Source: Candidatus Zixiibacteriota bacterium (lineage in GTDB: Bacteria; Zixibacteria; MSB-5A5; UBA10806). Taken from it: 64,000 nt of DNA. Shown here one piece after another: positions 37,721 to 46,880 of the stretch (position 1 is the first letter of the stretch; each line of letters opens with the position of its first letter). The notes under the pieces were generated by a model that saw only the letters and a list, made by a program, of their open reading frames with translations, was not told the DNA's origin and ran no database searches. Both the position numbers and the translations under genes were made by a program. The DNA is taken from the NCBI GenBank assembly GCA_024641335.1, contig JAHEDG010000010.1, forward strand, positions 9,910-73,909, read 5' to 3'.

Positions 37721-38863
37721 CTACTCCTCCGGAAGTCCGAAACAATAGAGGTTCATATCCTCGCCGACTACAAATATTTTATTCTGGCAGGTTATGGGCC
37801 GAGTGGAGATCATGCCGTCGGTTTTGAATTTGTTTTTGACCAGGCCGCTGGCCTTATCGACAAAATAGACATTGAAATCGATGCTTGTAAATACAGCCAT
37901 TTGTTCGGTAAGAGCCGGCCCTGCCTTGACCGGTCCGGCGATCCTGTTTTTCCAGACAATATCACCGGTTTCGAAATCGAGCCGGACGATAAAACGGTTA
38001 TTGGTTCCGAAATACACTCCTTGGCCATCAGAGGCAATCGGTCCGTAGACCGGCAACTTCAAATCATGGTACCAGACAGTTTGGCCTGAGACCAAATTTA
38101 CTCTGGCAGCCTGGCCATCGGCCGAGCAAAAGATGACCTGATCTTCGACAATAACCGGGGCGTTTCTGATTCTCGCGCCGGTATCGAAGCTCCATAGCAG
38201 TCGTCCGCTCCGGGGATCGAAACATTCCAGGACGCCGTCATCCGGGAAGATAAGAATTCCGAGTTCGGAACCGGAAACGGGCGCGGAAACGGTCCGATCG
38301 ATTTTTCTATCCCAGATTCGTTTACCTTGTGAGATATCGAAGCATCGCAAGTATCCCATACCATCCAACCAAATAAGTTTATCACCCAAGACCAGTGGTT
38401 CTCCGCCGGCTCCATTCAGATCGGCCTCCCAAAGCTGTTGGCGGTCAACCCAATTTTCCACCATCAAGCGGTATCCACCGATATTCAGGACAGCCATAGA
38501 ATCCGATATGACTACAGGAGCCATAACCGGCTCCTTAAAGCTTATTTCGGCATAAATATCGCCGTTATTAGCCGAAACAACATGGAGTTTATTATCGGGT
38601 GTGGAAATAAGCAGGAAACCTAACGCGCCTGTAGGTTCGATGTGCAGCGGATATTTGAATTTTCTGACCCAGAGCAATCCAGGCTGTTGGGAAAACGATA
38701 TATCGGAGTATGAAGATCTTTCGGGGCTACCTCCGCTATGATTCCAGAGGCAGCCATCCGGTCGATCTTTCAATACTATGGGGGCGGACGGCCCGCACCC
38801 GCAGGCGGCCGCTATTACCCCTCCCAGTATGACCAGCGAGAATGTTTTCTTTAGAAGTTCCAC
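37721..38863 (-). CDS. PQQ-like / BamB-like beta-propeller repeat protein with signal peptide
   Basis: 380 aa. N-terminal signal/lipobox-like segment (…AAACGCG), then repeated …G.V…D..TG…W motifs of PQQ-type propellers (BamB/YfgL-like). Confidence 0.65.
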   Translation of the reverse strand: MELLKKTFSLVILGGVIAAACGCGPSAPIVLKDRPDGCLWNHSGGSPERSSYSDISFSQQPGLLWVRKFKYPLHIEPTGALGFLLISTPDNKLHVVSANNGDIYAEISFKEPVMAPVVISDSMAVLNIGGYRLMVENWVDRQQLWEADLNGAGGEPLVLGDKLIWLDGMGYLRCFDISQGKRIWDRKIDRTVSAPVSGSELGILIFPDDGVLECFDPRSGRLLWSFDTGARIRNAPVIVEDQVIFCSADGQAARVNLVSGQTVWYHDLKLPVYGPIASDGQGVYFGTNNRFIVRLDFETGDIVWKNRIAGPVKAGPALTEQMAVFTSIDFNVYFVDKASGLVKNKFKTDGMISTRPITCQNKIFVVGEDMNLYCFGLPEE

Positions 38864-41709
38864 CCAAAAAAGAAATCAAAATCGTACTTGTTTTGCACCG
38901 ATTTAAAATCGGTACGCCTTGAGAAATCGAATCTCAGAACAGTAACATATCCCAGGGATGCCCGGATACCGAAACCGAGGCTTCCGACAACCCCCTTACT
39001 ACCATAATCGGGATTTTCGGCCATTTCTTTATTGGTTTCCCACGAATTTCCGACATCGAAAAACAGCGCTCCACGGATAGCCTGGAACCTCATATTGCCA
39101 AACGGGAATCCGATGAAGAGGTCGTTGACCAACGGAAAACGGATTTCATTATTGACCAACAGCATATTATTGGCGTAGAATTCCCTACGGGGATATCCTC
39201 TCAAAGACCAGCTTCCGCCGAGATAATATCTTTGTTTATCTTGCCCCGCGGAGTGCAGATACATGAACCTGGAAGCGTAAGCCGATGCCTGGCCGAGACG
39301 GAAATATCTGCGGAAGTCCACGTTGTAGGTGCTATTGTAGTAGTTGAGATCTTTCAGTCTGACCGATTGGGTCATTCCGATATTCACTCTGGTGCCCTCG
39401 ATCGGCCCGGTGGGATCCCAGATAGATGTATCTTTGATGTATGAAATAGTCATGGTACCGGTCGTCGCGTTAGTCCGCCTTGCGGGATCATTCGAAATAG
39501 TGGATTGTTTTTCCAGTTTACGCAGGTATAAAGAAGTTTCCAGTCTGCGGTAGCGAGAGATCGGATAGCTGGCGGCGAGAAGCCCTCCATAGGTTCTCTC
39601 GGCGACATATCCGTAGTAGTTTTCGGCGTATTCGTTGTAGAAATGGAAGATACCGGCTCCGAAATTAACTCTCCTGGTTTTATTCATATATGTCGCGCCG
39701 AAATTGACGCTGCTCAAAAAATCGGATTTGGTGTTGGCGGTATTGTAGAGCAGAAAATACCATTGGTGATTGCCCAGGATATCAGTCATAGCGAATTGGA
39801 GGCCTCCCATGGTTCCGCCGAGAGCGTCATAAGAGACCGCGGACTGGGCGATATCAAAGGAGAGTTGAGTTTTGTATTTGGCAGATCCCTGAGCAAGCTG
39901 GCCATCGAGTTTAGGCATTTTCCATGTTTCCCCTGCATTCCAGAGATCGGCAATCTCAACCGGTTCGTCAAGATCGTATTTTGAGCTGTCGGGCAGATCC
40001 ATTTTGTAGATATGGAATCCGAAATTTTGATAGGCTGAGAAGACTACGCTTGAATCTGAGGAGGCCAGCACGGGATCGAAGATACCTGTGACGAAATTGG
40101 TCAGCTGATGAGAGACGATCGAGCTCTCGGTCAGACGGTCGAGTATAAAGAGGTTCATAACGCCGGCGCGATCTGAACAGAAGACAATTCTCTTGTCGTC
40201 TTTGGTCCATTGCGGGTAGCTATCGATATGATCGCCGGATGTAAGGCCGGAGATTTTTCCCGAATCCAGATGATATAGATAGAGATTTCTGGCTCCATTT
40301 CGGCCGGAAATTCCCCTATCGGAGGAGAAGGCGATAAACTGTCCATCGTGCGAGAAAGAGGGGTTTTTATCGGTATAGATATCATTGGTAAGCCGGCTGA
40401 AGGAACTTGATTCGATATCGACCAGATAGAGATCGGATCGTCCTCCCCTGGTCATACCCTCTATCACAATGGAAGCTCCGTCTGGAGACCAGGCTGGCGA
40501 GGAGATAGCTATCAAGGAATCGCTTTTAATCTTATTGACTATTTTTCTCCGATCAGTATCGTAAATATACAGAGCATCGCTTTCCTGGTTTTTGGAGGCG
40601 AAAGCCAGCATGCCATCGTCATTGGCGTCAAGGCCGGATTCGGTGAAATGCAAAGATTCGAATTGTTCCGACCGTCCGCCTTTAATCAGTGTTTTGAAAT
40701 GGCTTTTTTCCCCTTCGAGAGGCATTTCGGCGATTTTGGAATAACCCATGCGGTAAGTTTTGAAGGCGATAAACTCTTTGGGCCCGTCAACGGTGTTTCT
40801 GGTAAAAATGGCGGGTTTGAGGTTATAACCGTCGCGGGTTAATTTATCGGCTATCCTGTCGGGCAGTTCCTGATCCTGCAGGTATGGATAGTAGGTTTTT
40901 TTAAGATCATACTCCCATTCGGCGCCAATTTCGGACAATGTTTTGCCGTAGGTGATCCTGATATTGTCGGAGAAGGTTTTTCCTTTCCACCAGTTATCAA
41001 AAAGATCAGCGAGTTTGTCATCTCCGTATGTTTCTCCGATATGTTTTAAGAGAGACTGTCCGACTTTATACATCAGGAATGTTCCTGAAATGCTGTAGAG
41101 TTCGTCGACCGAAACAATTCGACCGGAGATGGTCATATCGCGCATGAACATATCGGCCTGGCTATCCCATCCGTCAGACCAGTATTCGGCCAATCCTTCG
41201 GTAAACCAGAGCGGAGGAGTTGCGACGCTTGTTCTCCGGTGCATTTTTGCGACATAGGCGATTTTCTGCATGGTGAAAACATGGACCAGCTCGTGCCGGA
41301 CGACCTTGGCAAAATCAGCGAATGAACCGTTAAAAGGAATGACCACCCGCTGTTTGAAAAATTCGGTGAATCCAGCGACATTTTCAGGGAGAAGCCCGGG
41401 GATAATATTGGTTTGCTCGAAGAAAACCGGGGAGCTGTAAACGATGAAGGGGACTTTCTTTTCGATGGTATGGTTGAATTTTTCCTGAAGAAAGTCGTAT
41501 GATTCCTCGGCCAATTGAGCGGCGGCATCGGCGATTTCTTTCTCTTCCGGGTAGAAATATATATTAAAATGCTCGGTAGTCAGAACCTGCCAATCGAACC
41601 TGGTATACTGTATTTTGTTTTGTCCGAAATAATATTGGGCGTGCGAAGTTATTGCGGACAAAAGAATTAGGCAAATAATTCCGCTTGCTACCAGTAATCG
41701 CCGTTGCAT
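38851..41709 (-). CDS. multidomain outer-membrane protein: signal peptide, gluzincin-like HExxH domain, TolB/PD40-like beta-propeller repeats and a C-terminal Omp85-like beta-barrel
   Basis: 952 aa. Signal peptide MQRRLLVASGIICLILLSAITSHA. HELVHVFT followed about 30 aa later by FTEGLAEYW (HExxH…E). PD40-like repeats (PAWSPDGASIVIEG, NPSFSHDGQFIAFSSDRG, YPQWTKDDKRIVFCSDRAG). The C-terminus ends …FGIRASLGYVTVLRFDFSRR…DFDFFFGWNF, with the alternating pattern and terminal Phe of OMP barrels. 13-nt overlap with the propeller gene. Confidence 0.5.
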   Translation of the reverse strand: MQRRLLVASGIICLILLSAITSHAQYYFGQNKIQYTRFDWQVLTTEHFNIYFYPEEKEIADAAAQLAEESYDFLQEKFNHTIEKKVPFIVYSSPVFFEQTNIIPGLLPENVAGFTEFFKQRVVIPFNGSFADFAKVVRHELVHVFTMQKIAYVAKMHRRTSVATPPLWFTEGLAEYWSDGWDSQADMFMRDMTISGRIVSVDELYSISGTFLMYKVGQSLLKHIGETYGDDKLADLFDNWWKGKTFSDNIRITYGKTLSEIGAEWEYDLKKTYYPYLQDQELPDRIADKLTRDGYNLKPAIFTRNTVDGPKEFIAFKTYRMGYSKIAEMPLEGEKSHFKTLIKGGRSEQFESLHFTESGLDANDDGMLAFASKNQESDALYIYDTDRRKIVNKIKSDSLIAISSPAWSPDGASIVIEGMTRGGRSDLYLVDIESSSFSRLTNDIYTDKNPSFSHDGQFIAFSSDRGISGRNGARNLYLYHLDSGKISGLTSGDHIDSYPQWTKDDKRIVFCSDRAGVMNLFILDRLTESSIVSHQLTNFVTGIFDPVLASSDSSVVFSAYQNFGFHIYKMDLPDSSKYDLDEPVEIADLWNAGETWKMPKLDGQLAQGSAKYKTQLSFDIAQSAVSYDALGGTMGGLQFAMTDILGNHQWYFLLYNTANTKSDFLSSVNFGATYMNKTRRVNFGAGIFHFYNEYAENYYGYVAERTYGGLLAASYPISRYRRLETSLYLRKLEKQSTISNDPARRTNATTGTMTISYIKDTSIWDPTGPIEGTRVNIGMTQSVRLKDLNYYNSTYNVDFRRYFRLGQASAYASRFMYLHSAGQDKQRYYLGGSWSLRGYPRREFYANNMLLVNNEIRFPLVNDLFIGFPFGNMRFQAIRGALFFDVGNSWETNKEMAENPDYGSKGVVGSLGFGIRASLGYVTVLRFDFSRRTDFKSVQNKYDFDFFFGWNF

Positions 41710-41904: not shown

Positions 41905-42633
41905 TTATCCGGCCAAATCGGCCTTTTTACTTCTTTTTCCGATGATAATTAGTATTAATATGGATATTTCATAGAGGATATATAGCGGCAAGCCCATCAT
42001 AGCCATAGAAAAAACATCGGGAGGTGTGACCACGGCGGCGATTACGGCGATAGCGACAACCGCGTATCGTCTACCCTTGCCGAGCATTCCGGCGTTAATA
42101 ATGCCTAATTTGCCCAGAAATAGGGCGATAATCGGTGTCTGAAAGACCGCTCCATACGCCAGGGTAGTCCACATGACGAAATTCAGGTATTCATTTACAG
42201 TTAGCACCGGGGTGACGTTTTCCGGCGCGATATTGAGCAGGAAGGATATGGTAAACGGAAGAACCCAGACAAAGCACATCGCCGCCCCGCCCAGGAATAG
42301 AACTGATGAGATAAAAACCAGCGGGATAATGAATTTCTTTTCATGCTCATAGAGACCGGGCATGACAAAACACCAGGCCTGGTAAACCGTAATTGGTATA
42401 GAGACGAAGATACCGGCCAGAAAGGAAAGTTTGATTCTGACGGTAAAACCTTCGGAGATTTTGAGGAAATTCAAATCGATTTTGCCATCGGGAACCGCTT
42501 TTTCGAGCGGATAGCGGAGCCAATGGAAGAGAAAATCGGAAATTAGGTAGCAACCGATAGAGGCGATGATCATAGCGGCCAGGATCTTGATAATTCTCCA
42601 GCGCAATTCCTCGAGATGTTCCAGGAATGGCAT
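41905..42633 (-). CDS. tatC: twin-arginine translocase subunit TatC
   Basis: MPFLEHLEELRWRIIK… plus 6 TM helices. The track start at 42750 overlaps nrdR; the start is taken at the internal MPFLEHL (42633). Confidence 0.85.
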   Translation of the reverse strand: MPFLEHLEELRWRIIKILAAMIIASIGCYLISDFLFHWLRYPLEKAVPDGKIDLNFLKISEGFTVRIKLSFLAGIFVSIPITVYQAWCFVMPGLYEHEKKFIIPLVFISSVLFLGGAAMCFVWVLPFTISFLLNIAPENVTPVLTVNEYLNFVMWTTLAYGAVFQTPIIALFLGKLGIINAGMLGKGRRYAVVAIAVIAAVVTPPDVFSMAMMGLPLYILYEISILILIIIGKRSKKADLAG

Positions 42634-42640
42634 TTCCCCG

Positions 42641-43414
42641 CTAATTCTGGCTGCCAAGTTTTTCCTCCTCGGAGAGGCTTTCCACTTCTCTGGTAAATTC
42701 GGAGACGTCTTTGAATTTTCTATAGACCGAGGCGAAACGGATATAGGCAACCTCGTCGATTTCTCTGAGGCGTTTCATGATTAGTGTACCGAGTTCGGAG
42801 GAGGAGACCTCGCGACGTTTAGCCAGCGATTCGATTATCTCTTCGGCCAGACTTTCTATTTTCCGTTGGGATACGGGTCGTTTACGGAGAGCAATACTGA
42901 TGGAAGATATCAGTTTTTCACGTTTGAACGGTTCGTATCGGCCGTTAGCCTTGATCACCTGGAGTGATCCGGGCAGGGCTTTCAGCGAGGTAATGAATTC
43001 ATCCTTATCGGAGAAACGTTGATGGGCGGCGGCGTAACGGACATAAGAGACCTCGTCGAGCTTGAGCAGTTCTTTTTGCACGAGTTCGCCGATTTGACCG
43101 CTGTTTATCCCTCCGGAGTATTCGTTTTTAATTCGGGCAGTGAGATCGGAGATGACTGTTTGTATCCGTTCCCTGGAGACCGGTCTGTTTTTCAAAGCCA
43201 TATCGATACTGCCGGCAATTTTCTCGATCATGAAGGGTTCCCGCCGTCCATCGGCTTTGATTACCGTTGGGGAGGGTGTTTCCACCTGTTCATAGGTAGT
43301 GAACCGGTTGCCGCAGGCCAGGCATTCGCGTCTTCTGCGAATGGCACGACTATCCGCGGCCGGACGAGAATCAATAACCTTATCGCCGTCGGCGTTGCAG
43401 GCGGGGCAGATCAT
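42641..43414 (-). CDS. nrdR: transcriptional repressor NrdR with a duplicated (tandem) ATP-cone domain
   Basis: MICPACN…IDSR…IRRRRECLACGNRFTTYE zinc ribbon, then two consecutive ATP-cone units (VIKADGRREPFMIEKIAGSI…YVRYAAAHQRF and VIKANGRYEPFKREKLISSI…YIRFASVYRKF). Canonical NrdR is about 150 aa with one cone; this is about 258 aa. Confidence 0.75.
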   Translation of the reverse strand: MICPACNADGDKVIDSRPAADSRAIRRRRECLACGNRFTTYEQVETPSPTVIKADGRREPFMIEKIAGSIDMALKNRPVSRERIQTVISDLTARIKNEYSGGINSGQIGELVQKELLKLDEVSYVRYAAAHQRFSDKDEFITSLKALPGSLQVIKANGRYEPFKREKLISSISIALRKRPVSQRKIESLAEEIIESLAKRREVSSSELGTLIMKRLREIDEVAYIRFASVYRKFKDVSEFTREVESLSEEEKLGSQN

Positions 43415-44172
43415 GAGGAAATCATCACTTTCCATCCGAGATCGGCGCCGAAGTGACTATCGGCCCGTCCCAGGTTGATCGCTATTTCCAGGTAACCCAT
43501 GCTTCCGATATAAGCCAGCGGTTTACCCCGCGGAACATCGGAGAAAGCTCTGACCAATGGGATATCGTCCACTCCGGGCAGCTTGATTCTGCTACTCGGT
43601 TTGATCAACTCCCGGGATAAATTTGTAATCAGGTTGCCGAAATTGTCAATATCAATCACGACGCCTTCGATACCACTTTTTCCGATTGCCGGTAAAGGTG
43701 TTTTTAAGAGCACCGGATTATCTATGATATCCCCCAGATCGGCCGGTTTTTCCCCGGCGGCTATCAAGGCGGCAGCCGGCGCGAATATATCCCGTCCGTG
43801 GAAAGTAGCCGATATTTCAGCAGACGGCAGCGATCCGATATTTATTTCCCGCCATTGGGAATCAAGGGATCTTTCCATGATTCCGGTGAAGATGCCGTTA
43901 TCGGGTCCGACGTAATAGTATCGCCCGTCAAAACCTACAAGGGCCCTGCGACTGGATCCGACAGTGGGATCGACAACCAGCAGATGGATTGTTTCGGCAG
44001 GGTAATAGCGATAATATCTGGCCAGGGCAAAAGACGATTTTACGACCCCGGTCAGATCGTGGGTAACATCGATAATCTCGGCCTGGGGTGAGATCGATTT
44101 GATAACCCCCTTCATGGCGGCGGGGTAACCGTCGACTGTGCCGAAATCAGTAGCGAGAGTAATAATGCTCAT
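43411..44172 (-). CDS. SAM hydroxide adenosyltransferase family protein (DUF62; chlorinase/fluorinase-like fold)
   Basis: MSIITLATDFGTVDGYPAAMKGVI…LLVVDPTVGSSRR…YYVGPDNGIF, the signature N-terminus of DUF62. Confidence 0.75.
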   Translation of the reverse strand: MSIITLATDFGTVDGYPAAMKGVIKSISPQAEIIDVTHDLTGVVKSSFALARYYRYYPAETIHLLVVDPTVGSSRRALVGFDGRYYYVGPDNGIFTGIMERSLDSQWREINIGSLPSAEISATFHGRDIFAPAAALIAAGEKPADLGDIIDNPVLLKTPLPAIGKSGIEGVVIDIDNFGNLITNLSRELIKPSSRIKLPGVDDIPLVRAFSDVPRGKPLAYIGSMGYLEIAINLGRADSHFGADLGWKVMISS

Positions 44173-44592
44173 CTATATTTTTATCAGGTTTAGGCCGGTT
44201 TGCTCGTCCCGACCTCGGCTAATTACTGTCTCTCCGGACCTGATATAGAATTCGCCGGTAACCGCGACAATCGCGCTGAACAGGTGGCCTCCGAAAACAG
44301 AGCATTGCTTATCGGAAATAACCGCGTGGCAATGCAGTATGGTCTCGGAGCCGAGTTTGGCGAAATTGCCGGAAAGATTCAACAGCTCGTGATCGCCGTC
44401 GAATTCCCTTTTATGGTACTCTCCCCCGACCAGATCGTAGTAGCCGAGAGTGATTTTCTTTAAAGCCCCGATCCCAACAACAGTGCCGGAACTAATATTA
44501 TTATCGGCGGCGAATTTCGCCAGGGTCGATACGACCTCGTCGCCGATATCACAGCGAACAAAGAAACCGTCCTTTATTGTTTTGCTTTGCAC
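44173..44592 (-). CDS. PPC/DUF296 domain protein
   Basis: 139 aa; …GTVVGIGALKKITLGYYD…HCHAVISD…FGGHLF…, the PPC (plants-and-prokaryotes-conserved) fold. Confidence 0.55.
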   Translation of the reverse strand: MQSKTIKDGFFVRCDIGDEVVSTLAKFAADNNISSGTVVGIGALKKITLGYYDLVGGEYHKREFDGDHELLNLSGNFAKLGSETILHCHAVISDKQCSVFGGHLFSAIVAVTGEFYIRSGETVISRGRDEQTGLNLIKI

Positions 44593-44931
44593 CTACTCCC
44601 CTTTGCTGTCCGATTCAATACCGCAGGATGATCTGACCCAATCGGCGTATTCAGCTGACACGGCGGCGACATCGAAGGCGATTACCTCCGGGTAGTTATA
44701 GGAATGACTGGCTTTGACATATTTCTCGATGTCTCCGAATTTCGAGCGGATCGATTTAATGATCAACAGCCATTCGTCCTGATTTTCAATCTTCCCCTGC
44801 CAATAAAAGACTGATCTCACTCCGGAAATATTCACGCAGGCGGCGAGATTTTTTTTAACGAGGCCGTCGGAAATCAATACCGCCTCTTCCTCCGTGACGC
44901 AGGTTACCATTATGATTATCAGATCTTCCAT
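44593..44931 (-). CDS. cutA: divalent-cation tolerance protein CutA
   Basis: …AACVNISGVRSVFYWQGKIENQDEWLLIIKS…HSYNYPEVIAFDV, typical CutA1. The start is taken at MEDLIIIMVTC rather than the over-extended track ORF. Confidence 0.7.
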   Translation of the reverse strand: MEDLIIIMVTCVTEEEAVLISDGLVKKNLAACVNISGVRSVFYWQGKIENQDEWLLIIKSIRSKFGDIEKYVKASHSYNYPEVIAFDVAAVSAEYADWVRSSCGIESDSKGE

Positions 44932-45138
44932 TTTATCGCCTCGTGTTTCAGCCGATCCTCGGCGGGCGGCATGCTTTCTTCGACCGGAGGTCGAAGTCGG
45001 CATTGGCCGAGACTTTTCAATTCAAGATCCTCAATTATTCGAACATTTCCTTCCGGTATATTGTTTCTTTCGCCGCTATACGGGTGAAAATGCCCAATCC
45101 CGCCGTAGCGGGATAAAGCATGCCGCCCAGATAAAAGC

Positions 45139-45444
45139 CTACTTCCTGACCTCCCGACCGATAATCTTCTCGATATCGGCGATTTTGCCCTTGAGCCGGC
45201 CTTTGGCCCCGGCGCGATCATCGATAGAGATCTTGGTGTTGACTCGCTCGGAGCTTTCTCTAAGCTTATTATGGCAGGCTCTGATCAGGCTCATAACCTC
45301 GTCCCAGTCGCCTTCCACGATTGTGCCCATGGCGGTAGTCTGGTAATCGAGACCGGATTTATCGATCAGGTCGATCACCCCGGCCACGTCCTTGCCCAGC
45401 GCGGTGCCCTTATCCAATGGAAAAGTAGAGAACATTGCCAGCAT
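45139..45444 (-). CDS. MTH1187/YkoF-family (DUF77) small thiamine-binding-like protein
   Basis: 101 aa, MLAMFSTFPLDKGTALGKDVAGVIDLI…, the ferredoxin-like fold family MTH1187/YkoF. Confidence 0.65.
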   Translation of the reverse strand: MLAMFSTFPLDKGTALGKDVAGVIDLIDKSGLDYQTTAMGTIVEGDWDEVMSLIRACHNKLRESSERVNTKISIDDRAGAKGRLKGKIADIEKIIGREVRK

Positions 45445-45632
45445 TAAGCCCTCCTTTCGGTTTCCCCTTAAACGCTGTAAGTCTCGCCTTCAGCTTACGA
45501 CTATCGGGATGTCGTCAGGAAAGGATTCCTGACAACTCTTAGGAACGACCCGCAGAGAATGCGCTCGTTGGCTATTGCGGTATTTATGCGCTTCAGGATG
45601 CCGTTTCGCTTCATCCTGACAGATAAAGATAC
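45445..45632 (-). promoter_or_regulatory. structured 188-nt 5' leader (candidate cis-regulatory RNA, class unassigned) carrying two copies of the GTCAGGA…TCCTGAC hairpin
   Basis: Minus-sense RNA folds into at least three stable hairpins: CAGGAUG-aagcgaaacgg-CAUCCUG, GUCAGGAA-uccu-UUCCUGAC, and a distal UUGCGGUA/UACCGCAA pairing. The SD AGGAGGG is 7 nt before the AUG. No TPP-riboswitch core (CUGAGA, …GCGUAGGGA) could be identified. Confidence 0.3.
45592..45619. repeat. REP-like palindromic element, copy A (TCAGGATG…CATCCTGA)
   Basis: An 8-bp inverted repeat around an 11-nt loop, 13 nt past the glyA stop. A related GTCAGGAA-aggatt-CCTGAC hairpin lies at 45513-45532. Confidence 0.45.
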
Positions 45633-46880
45633 CTACCGCAATTCCGGGTAAAGCGGGAATTTGGCGCAGAGAGTAGAGACCTCCCGGCGCACATCGGCGA
45701 TGACTGAATCATCTTTCATGTTCTTGATCACACGGGAGATCATTTTGCCGATCTGCATCATTTCATCAACTCCCATGCCGCGGGTGGTGACAGCCGGAGC
45801 GCCGATTCTTATGCCCGATGTTACAAACGGTTTTTCCGGATCGAACGGCACGGTATTCTTGTTGACCGTGATGGCGGCCTTCTCCAACGCTTTCTCGACT
45901 TCTTTGCCGGTAATCCCCTGGCCGACGAATGAGAGCAGCAAAAGATGCGTATCAGTTCCGCCGGAAACCACGTGGAAACCATCGTCGAGCAAAGTCCGGG
46001 CCAGAGTTTTGGCATTGGCAATAATCTTTTTCTGATATTCTTTGAATTCCGGCTTCAGGGCCTCTTTGAAAGCCACGGCTTTGGCTGCGATGATATGCAT
46101 TAGCGGGCCGCCCTGGATACCGGGCATGACCTCGCGGTCGAGGTCTTTGGAATATTTCTCCTTGCACATAATCATCCCGCCGCGCGGACCACGCAGGGTT
46201 TTATGGGTTGTCGTAGTCACGAAGTCGGCGTACGGAACCGGCGACGGATGCAGACCGGCAGCCACCAGACCGGCGATATGGGCTATATCGACAACCAGAT
46301 AGGCGCCGACCTCGTCGCAAACCTCGCGGAATTTCTTGAAATCGAGTACGCGCGGGTAGGCAGAGGCTCCGGCCATAATCAAGCTGGGCCCGACTTCAAC
46401 AGCTCTTTTCATCAGTTGGTCGTAATCGATGGTTTCTGTTTCTTTGCTAACCGAATACGGCTCGACTTTGTACAACTTGCCTGAGAAATTCACCGGATGG
46501 CCGTGGGTAAGATGTCCGCCATGGGAAAGATTCAATCCCATGATCGTATCGCCCGGTTTCAATACAGTGAAATAGACAGCCATATTGGCCTGCGAGCCGG
46601 AGTGCGGTTGAACATTGACATGTTCGCAACCGAAAAGCTCCCTGGCGCGGGCTCGGGCCAGATTCTCGGCATCGTCGACAAAAGCACAGCCGCCGTAATA
46701 ACGTTTGCCGGGATACCCCTCGGCGTATTTGTTGGTCATGACCGATCCCATCGCCTCCATCACAGGATAGGAAACGAAATTCTCAGAGGCAATCAGTTCG
46801 AGGCCGTCATGCTGACGGTCGACCTCGCCGCACATGGCCTGATAGATTTCAGGATCGGCGTCTTTTAAATATTCAAACAT
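45633..46880 (-). CDS. glyA: serine hydroxymethyltransferase
   Basis: 415 aa with PLP-lysine region …[15 protein letters not shown]…, the canonical SHMT. Confidence 0.95.

Follow-up and report, generated by a model that had tools for sequence, protein, structure and literature searches.

The window, by which we mean the whole 64,000-nucleotide stretch of DNA that was analysed, encodes at 42641..43414 on the minus strand a NrdR protein in which the zinc ribbon is followed by two ATP-cones. We propose, with moderate confidence, that it represents the NrdR of a sub-lineage of Zixibacteria in which an old tandem duplication of the cone has left the second copy with the canonical switch and the first with a retained, altered nucleotide site. 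That two-cone NrdR is a real and conserved variant in a branch of this uncultured phylum is an observation in its own right. NrdR proteins normally have a single cone and about 150 amino acids, whereas the window protein has 257, the difference being an extra complete cone between the ribbon and the canonical-looking cone.

The nrdR reading frame runs without interruption. The listed ORF begins at 43435 (MESDDFLM...), but we have taken the ATG at 43414 as the start, because nearly all of the orthologues start with M/L/V-ICP (MICP...) and because this ATG and the stop codon of the preceding gene share bases in an ATGA. This start gives a product of 257 amino acids plus stop, which is also what the coordinates of the original prediction imply. 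In Pfam the zinc-ribbon DNA-binding domain, residues 1-47 (43274..43414, minus strand), matches Zn_ribbon_NrdR (PF22811) at residues 1-42 over the full model, positions 1-42 (78.5 bits, E 3.6e-22). It is followed by ATP-cone 1, residues 48-149 (42968..43273, minus strand; PF03477, with coordinates from tblastn), and ATP-cone 2, residues 150-251 (42662..42967, minus strand; PF03477). Scanned alone, the cones gave 62.3 bits (E 6.4e-17) and 73.1 bits (E 2.8e-20), respectively, against a PF03477 gathering cut-off of 25.8 bits. The original prediction of a zinc ribbon and two complete ATP-cones was thus right, with the ribbon found once and the cone twice in Pfam, and the second repeat not only scores as an ATP-cone but scores higher than the first. 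The NCBIfam NrdR equivalog TIGR00244 matches with 241 bits against a cut-off of 125, while the ribonucleotide reductase (RNR) models of that collection match solely through the cones and far under their cut-offs. Neither Pfam nor NCBIfam revealed an RNR catalytic or radical-generating domain in the two-cone protein.

As proteins, the two cones share 37% identity (BLASTP E 1e-24). Their coding DNA has a single common stretch of 29 nt with 83% identity, so that the duplication is old and a misassembled repeat is excluded. A frameshift or a fusion with a downstream gene, either of which had been named as a possible source of the extra length, was looked for and not found; tatC is a separate ORF which starts 8 nt past the nrdR stop codon. 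Among 5.8 billion proteins, 51 clusters (90% identity) have the ribbon-cone-cone layout and a length of 252-258 amino acids (one has 265), in addition to a few fragments. These clusters are drawn from NCBI, JGI, ENA and Logan assemblies, and all of those with a named source come from Candidatus Zixiibacteriota. One member, P0002, which is 80% identical to the window protein, is encoded on the closed 3.74-Mb chromosome CP070742.1.

Based upon Pfam matches, nrdR lies in a same-strand block with the order SHMT (glyA), Thiamine_BP, CutA1, PCC, SAM_HAT, nrdR, tatC. The first four genes occupy 44173..46880 (minus strand), followed by the SAM hydroxide adenosyltransferase gene (SAM_HAT; 43411..44172, minus strand) directly upstream of nrdR, and by tatC downstream of it (41905..42633, minus strand; Pfam TatC, E 2.8e-70; likely start ATG at 42633). 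With 10 kb inspected on each side of nrdR, the order Thiamine_BP-CutA1-PCC-SAM_HAT-nrdR-tatC was also found in CP070742.1 (locus L003). The block order recurs in locus L002, which encodes P0054, a protein 44% identical to that of the window and belonging to a more distant clade of two-cone NrdRs. In that locus SAM_HAT and nrdR are separated by a dCMP/cytidine deaminase gene (L002:9489-9998), a nucleotide-metabolism neighbour which the window does not have. An ordinary one-cone Zixibacteria NrdR of 149 amino acids (P0067, CP070777.1) is encoded by a gene directly upstream of tatC. Since this one-cone gene also adjoins tatC, and given the synteny of the block, the two-cone gene is probably the positional orthologue of ordinary nrdR and not an extra paralogue.

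Other features of this neighbourhood deserve mention. The Thiamine_BP gene is the head of the block containing nrdR, and the 188-bp gap between it and glyA contains, at 45511-45536, an 11-nt inverted repeat (GTCGTCAGGAA and TTCCTGACAAC, 4 nt apart), which is not an NrdR box and could be an operator or a stem-loop. The promoter and terminator scan yielded nothing exceeding the shuffled background. Downstream of tatC, at 38851-41709 (minus strand), is a gene for a 952 amino acid protein of unusual architecture, in which Peptidase_MA_2 and PD40 beta-propeller repeats occur together with an Omp85 domain at the C-terminus; L002 and L003 carry after tatC genes for proteins of similar length (937 amino acids) with Tricorn-like and PD40 matches.

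The zinc ribbon is that of a canonical NrdR. The ligands C3, C6, C31 and C34 as well as E42 are invariant among the 50-51 family members compared, D15, R17, R26-R29 and R37 are each present in 51/51, and position 12 is Arg or Lys. The same Cys ligands, D15/R17 pair, Arg cluster and E42 occur in the NrdRs of E. coli and S. coelicolor (PDB accession numbers 9fvr, 9fxk, 7p37 and 7p3f), in which D15 and R17 read bases, R26-R29 and R37 bind the backbone, and E42 forms a dimer salt bridge (PMC9110341, PMC12176259). Since D15, R17 and the Arg cluster are invariant, the DNA motif recognized by two-cone NrdR should be the NrdR box.

Among solved structures, sequence searches matched NrdRs alone, with cone 2 aligning to residues 59-149 of the E. 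coli protein, including its C-terminal VAYIRFASVYR.F.D..EF segment. The AlphaFold monomer (pLDDT 80.5) consists of the ribbon and two cones with an extra C-terminal helix in each cone; both cones are of the NrdR type, possessing the C-terminal helix-loop-helix of canonical NrdR together with the inner-site residues. Foldseek returned E. coli and S. coelicolor NrdR as best matches (E ~3e-13), followed by the class I RNR subunit NrdA of P. aeruginosa (PDB accession number 5im3) as the best non-NrdR structure. The linkers differ from canonical NrdR, being Pro-Gly-Pro before cone 1 and Leu-Pro-x-Ser before cone 2, and at the cone junction (Leu-Pro-Gly-Ser) the pLDDT falls below 50, as in a floppy hinge. 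With pTM values of 0.43 for the full-length protein and 0.45 for the cones alone, the relative placement of the cones is of low confidence, and such monomer models lend no support to a fixed cone-cone pairing within one chain but, being weak evidence, say little against it either. PDB accession number 9a6n is an integrative model of a Soj-NrdR complex, which hints at NrdR partners beyond DNA.

To compare the cones, residues were numbered through a gap-free alignment to E. coli NrdR and a cone-to-cone alignment, with residue roles taken from the structures of S. coelicolor (PMC9110341) and E. coli (PMC12176259) NrdR. In both cones, 49/49 sequences have the inner-site residues corresponding to S. 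coelicolor V48, K50, E56 and F58, as well as the equivalent of K62, an outer-site phosphate contact; in cone 1 the contacts K53, E59, F61 and K65 are invariant in all 49. Both cones also have an aromatic residue at the position of F124. This shared conservation would be expected if both cones were full two-nucleotide sensors, together binding up to four nucleotides per monomer and both switching, with the changes in cone 1 being tolerated. Also in favour of such a double sensor are the second Zixibacteria clade (clade B: P0052 and P0054), which has Val-Tyr at the switch position in both cones, and the Tyr which 11/49 main-clade proteins keep in cone 1. Since clade B keeps Val-Tyr twice, a two-cone NrdR need not lose the switch in cone 1.

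We nevertheless consider that two full sensors are unlikely, on account of what has happened to the outer site of cone 1. V127 of S. coelicolor NrdR packs against the 2'-deoxyribose, and its Y128 (Y131 in E. coli) flips and binds the 2'/3'-OH of ATP; the mutation Y128A alters nucleotide selectivity (PMC9110341). At these columns 274 one-cone NrdRs have Val in 97% and Tyr in 98%. Cone 2 conforms, with Tyr in 49/49 and Val in 48/49 (V230/Y231 in the window protein), while cone 1, the ribbon-proximal one, departs from canonical NrdR in having no conserved Val-Tyr switch: the Tyr column contains His (27), Tyr (11), Cys (4), Arg (3), Ser (3) and Asn (1) among 49 sequences, Val is found in 18/49 at the preceding column, and the window protein has A130/H131. 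One-cone NrdRs have 23 cone positions with a conservation of 85% or more; cone 2 retains 21 of these, and the two that it is missing, changed from G to S and from F to Y, are changed in cone 1 as well. Cone 1 further loses G109 (an otherwise invariant Gly), V130 and Y131, and in about half of the sequences the Lys equivalent to E. coli K76, which extends to the nucleotides of the partner cone (PMC9110341, PMC12176259). Judged from the alignment, the relaxed positions of cone 1 cluster at the outer site and the cone-cone interface and leave the fold and the inner site untouched.

Both cones are under strong purifying selection, which is somewhat weaker on cone 1. Between the window and L003, synonymous differences are saturated (pS 0.66-0.79). 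The ribbon, cone 1 and cone 2 have pN values of 0.065, 0.185 and 0.127 in this comparison, and mean pairwise identities within the main clade of 88%, 67% and 76%, respectively. The faster evolution of cone 1 would fit a purely structural role as a ligand-free spacer or oligomerization surface, for which the second cone of P. aeruginosa NrdA offers a model: in that enzyme's tandem cones only the N-terminal, outer one binds nucleotides (PMC5794259), so that tandem cones of unequal role have a precedent. The fusion partner of the cones is an RNR catalytic subunit in NrdA and a DNA-binding ribbon in the window protein. The two differ also in that both cones of the window protein keep the binding residues, the better conserved copy being the C-terminal one. 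Complete invariance of K53, E59, F61 and K65 is not expected of a ligand-free site, and a purely structural cone 1 seems to us distinctly improbable.

The arrangement that we favour, a canonical switch in cone 2 and a modified nucleotide site in cone 1, would most likely work as follows. Cone 2 would bind ATP at its inner site and either ATP or dATP at its outer site, as in the E. coli and S. coelicolor proteins, and the Val-Tyr switch would re-set the cone 2-cone 2 pair and so gate DNA binding by the oligomer. Cone 1 would hold an adenine nucleotide at its inner site without discriminating between ATP and dATP, and would serve as a second, differently tuned input and/or as a spacer, changing the geometry or the length of the arm by which the switching cone pair is joined to the ribbon pairs. 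Since only cone 2 keeps the residues which distinguish ATP from dATP, the two-cone protein probably senses nucleotides in a manner different from that of any NrdR studied. The inequality of the cones gives indirect support to the original prediction, according to which a second cone would alter nucleotide sensing and oligomeric state. A more specific version, in which cone 1 reads for example the ATP/ADP energy charge or another adenine ligand, cone 2 reads ATP/dATP, and the oligomer is changed as well, is offered as a tentative possibility. The canonical tetramer is a ring of alternating ribbon-ribbon and cone-cone contacts, with ribbon pairs approximately 80 Å apart, which corresponds to the three-turn spacing of NrdR boxes (PMC9110341, PMC12176259). 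Each arm of the two-cone protein has a further domain of about 100 residues, which could change the oligomer or its preferred box spacing.

No RNR was found among the eight window ORFs of at least 450 amino acids, as the original prediction had claimed, and tblastn located no further ATP-cone or NrdR ribbon encoded in the window. Nor was there an RNR gene in the Logan contigs that extend approximately 3 kb and 9 kb past its two ends. The window and loci L001-L010 were also scanned for NrdR boxes with the consensus ACACWATATATWGTGT, with C4 and G13 obligatory and at most 5 mismatches allowed. No pair of boxes with a spacing of 15 to 60 bp was discovered in any of these sequences, and there was no box in the 188-bp glyA/Thiamine_BP intergenic region. 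The sole decent single box in this set (ACACTAGCTCCAGTGT, L001:9958-9973) is just upstream of an unrelated two-cone nrdR. Because no RNR gene or box pair is present in the window, its flanks or the related loci, the RNR regulon of two-cone NrdR is an assumption, according to which it would repress RNR operons through NrdR boxes elsewhere in the genome.

The same absence of RNR genes and NrdR boxes from the vicinity could mean that the protein has been re-purposed and that RNR genes are no longer its targets, its own operon or other genes perhaps having taken their place; that it shares an operon with the unrelated SAM_HAT and tatC would agree with this. We regard re-purposing as very improbable. 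Lack of linkage to RNR genes is common among canonical nrdR genes, the search turned up no NrdR box in the operon in which this one resides, and there is no variation in the base-reading D15 and R17 or in the Arg cluster. As for the extra length being an artefact of a frameshift, of fusion to a neighbour or of assembly duplication, this has virtually no chance of being correct and is refuted by the intact ORF, the divergence of the cones, the approximately 50 clusters, one of them represented in a closed genome, and the separate tatC.

Multi-cone NrdRs are rare. A HMMER scan over 1.84 billion cluster representatives revealed only the large Zixibacteria clade, the small clade B, a small lineage in which LETR replaces IDSR in the ribbon (P0126, P0129, P0150, P0254, P0284 and P0285), and a single three-cone protein, P0135. 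A peptide-pattern scan of species genomes, which employed very specific patterns, recovered 5 loci, with a two-cone gene in CP070742.1 alone. Two-cone nrdR genes of the LETR lineage are located at L001:10001-10756 and L012:10001-10762; the former has an actinobacteria-like context (FHA, PP2C and PBP genes) and lies 3 kb from a class II RNR gene. P0135 (L011:49-1170, JGI contig Ga0613077_104992) is a 373 amino acid protein with a zinc ribbon and three ATP-cones, of which the second and third are 56% identical; a class II RNR gene starts within its gene, in an nrdRJ operon-like arrangement, and P0135 is a singleton among the 5.8 billion proteins. P0126, P0129, P0150 and P0254, with two cones, and P0135 resemble the window protein in placing more than one NrdR-type cone after the ribbon, but they are just 31-35% identical to it and their genomic context differs.

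In a tree of individual cones, those of the LETR lineage and of P0135 are found outside the Zixibacteria groups, which suggests separate duplications, and on this basis duplication of the NrdR cone has probably occurred more than once. Neighbour-joining bootstrap values are at least 95% for each of the four Zixibacteria cone groups and at most 12.5% for all deeper groupings. The G-to-S and F-to-Y changes are derived in both cones of the main clade and occur neither in clade B nor in the one-cone NrdRs of Zixibacteria; these common derived residues hint at separate duplications or gene conversion within Zixibacteria. Other rearrangements were encountered. The NrdR-like proteins P0123 and P0172 show the opposite domain duplication, with two zinc ribbons in succession followed by one ATP-cone. 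A 261 amino acid "NrdR" (P0121) contains a near-identical repeat of a ribbon-plus-partial-cone segment; it has the look of a chimera between strain variants, produced in assembly, and not of a true two-cone protein.

Full-text literature searches returned no prior description of a multi-cone NrdR, or of NrdR in Zixibacteria, and recent structural and bioinformatic papers on NrdR deal with the ribbon-plus-one-cone protein only. As databases label the two-cone proteins plainly as "transcriptional repressor NrdR", the variant is invisible in annotation. NrdR acts through nucleotide-driven re-pairing of a single ATP-cone, one-cone proteins having been the subject of all structural and biochemical studies to date, and a natural two-cone form with unequal cones departs from that scheme, separating within one polypeptide the binding at the inner site from the ATP/dATP switch at the outer site. 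It also provides a natural test of how far apart ribbon pairs and cone pair may lie. If the more specific version outlined above is true, the additional layer of cones would alter the stoichiometry of the oligomer or lengthen the span between ribbon pairs, which in turn would entail another spacing of NrdR boxes, and the unequal cones would amount to a naturally re-wired nucleotide-gated oligomerization switch. The gain, duplication and decay of ATP-cones, which are known in the RNR enzymes, are extended by two-cone NrdR to a transcription factor.
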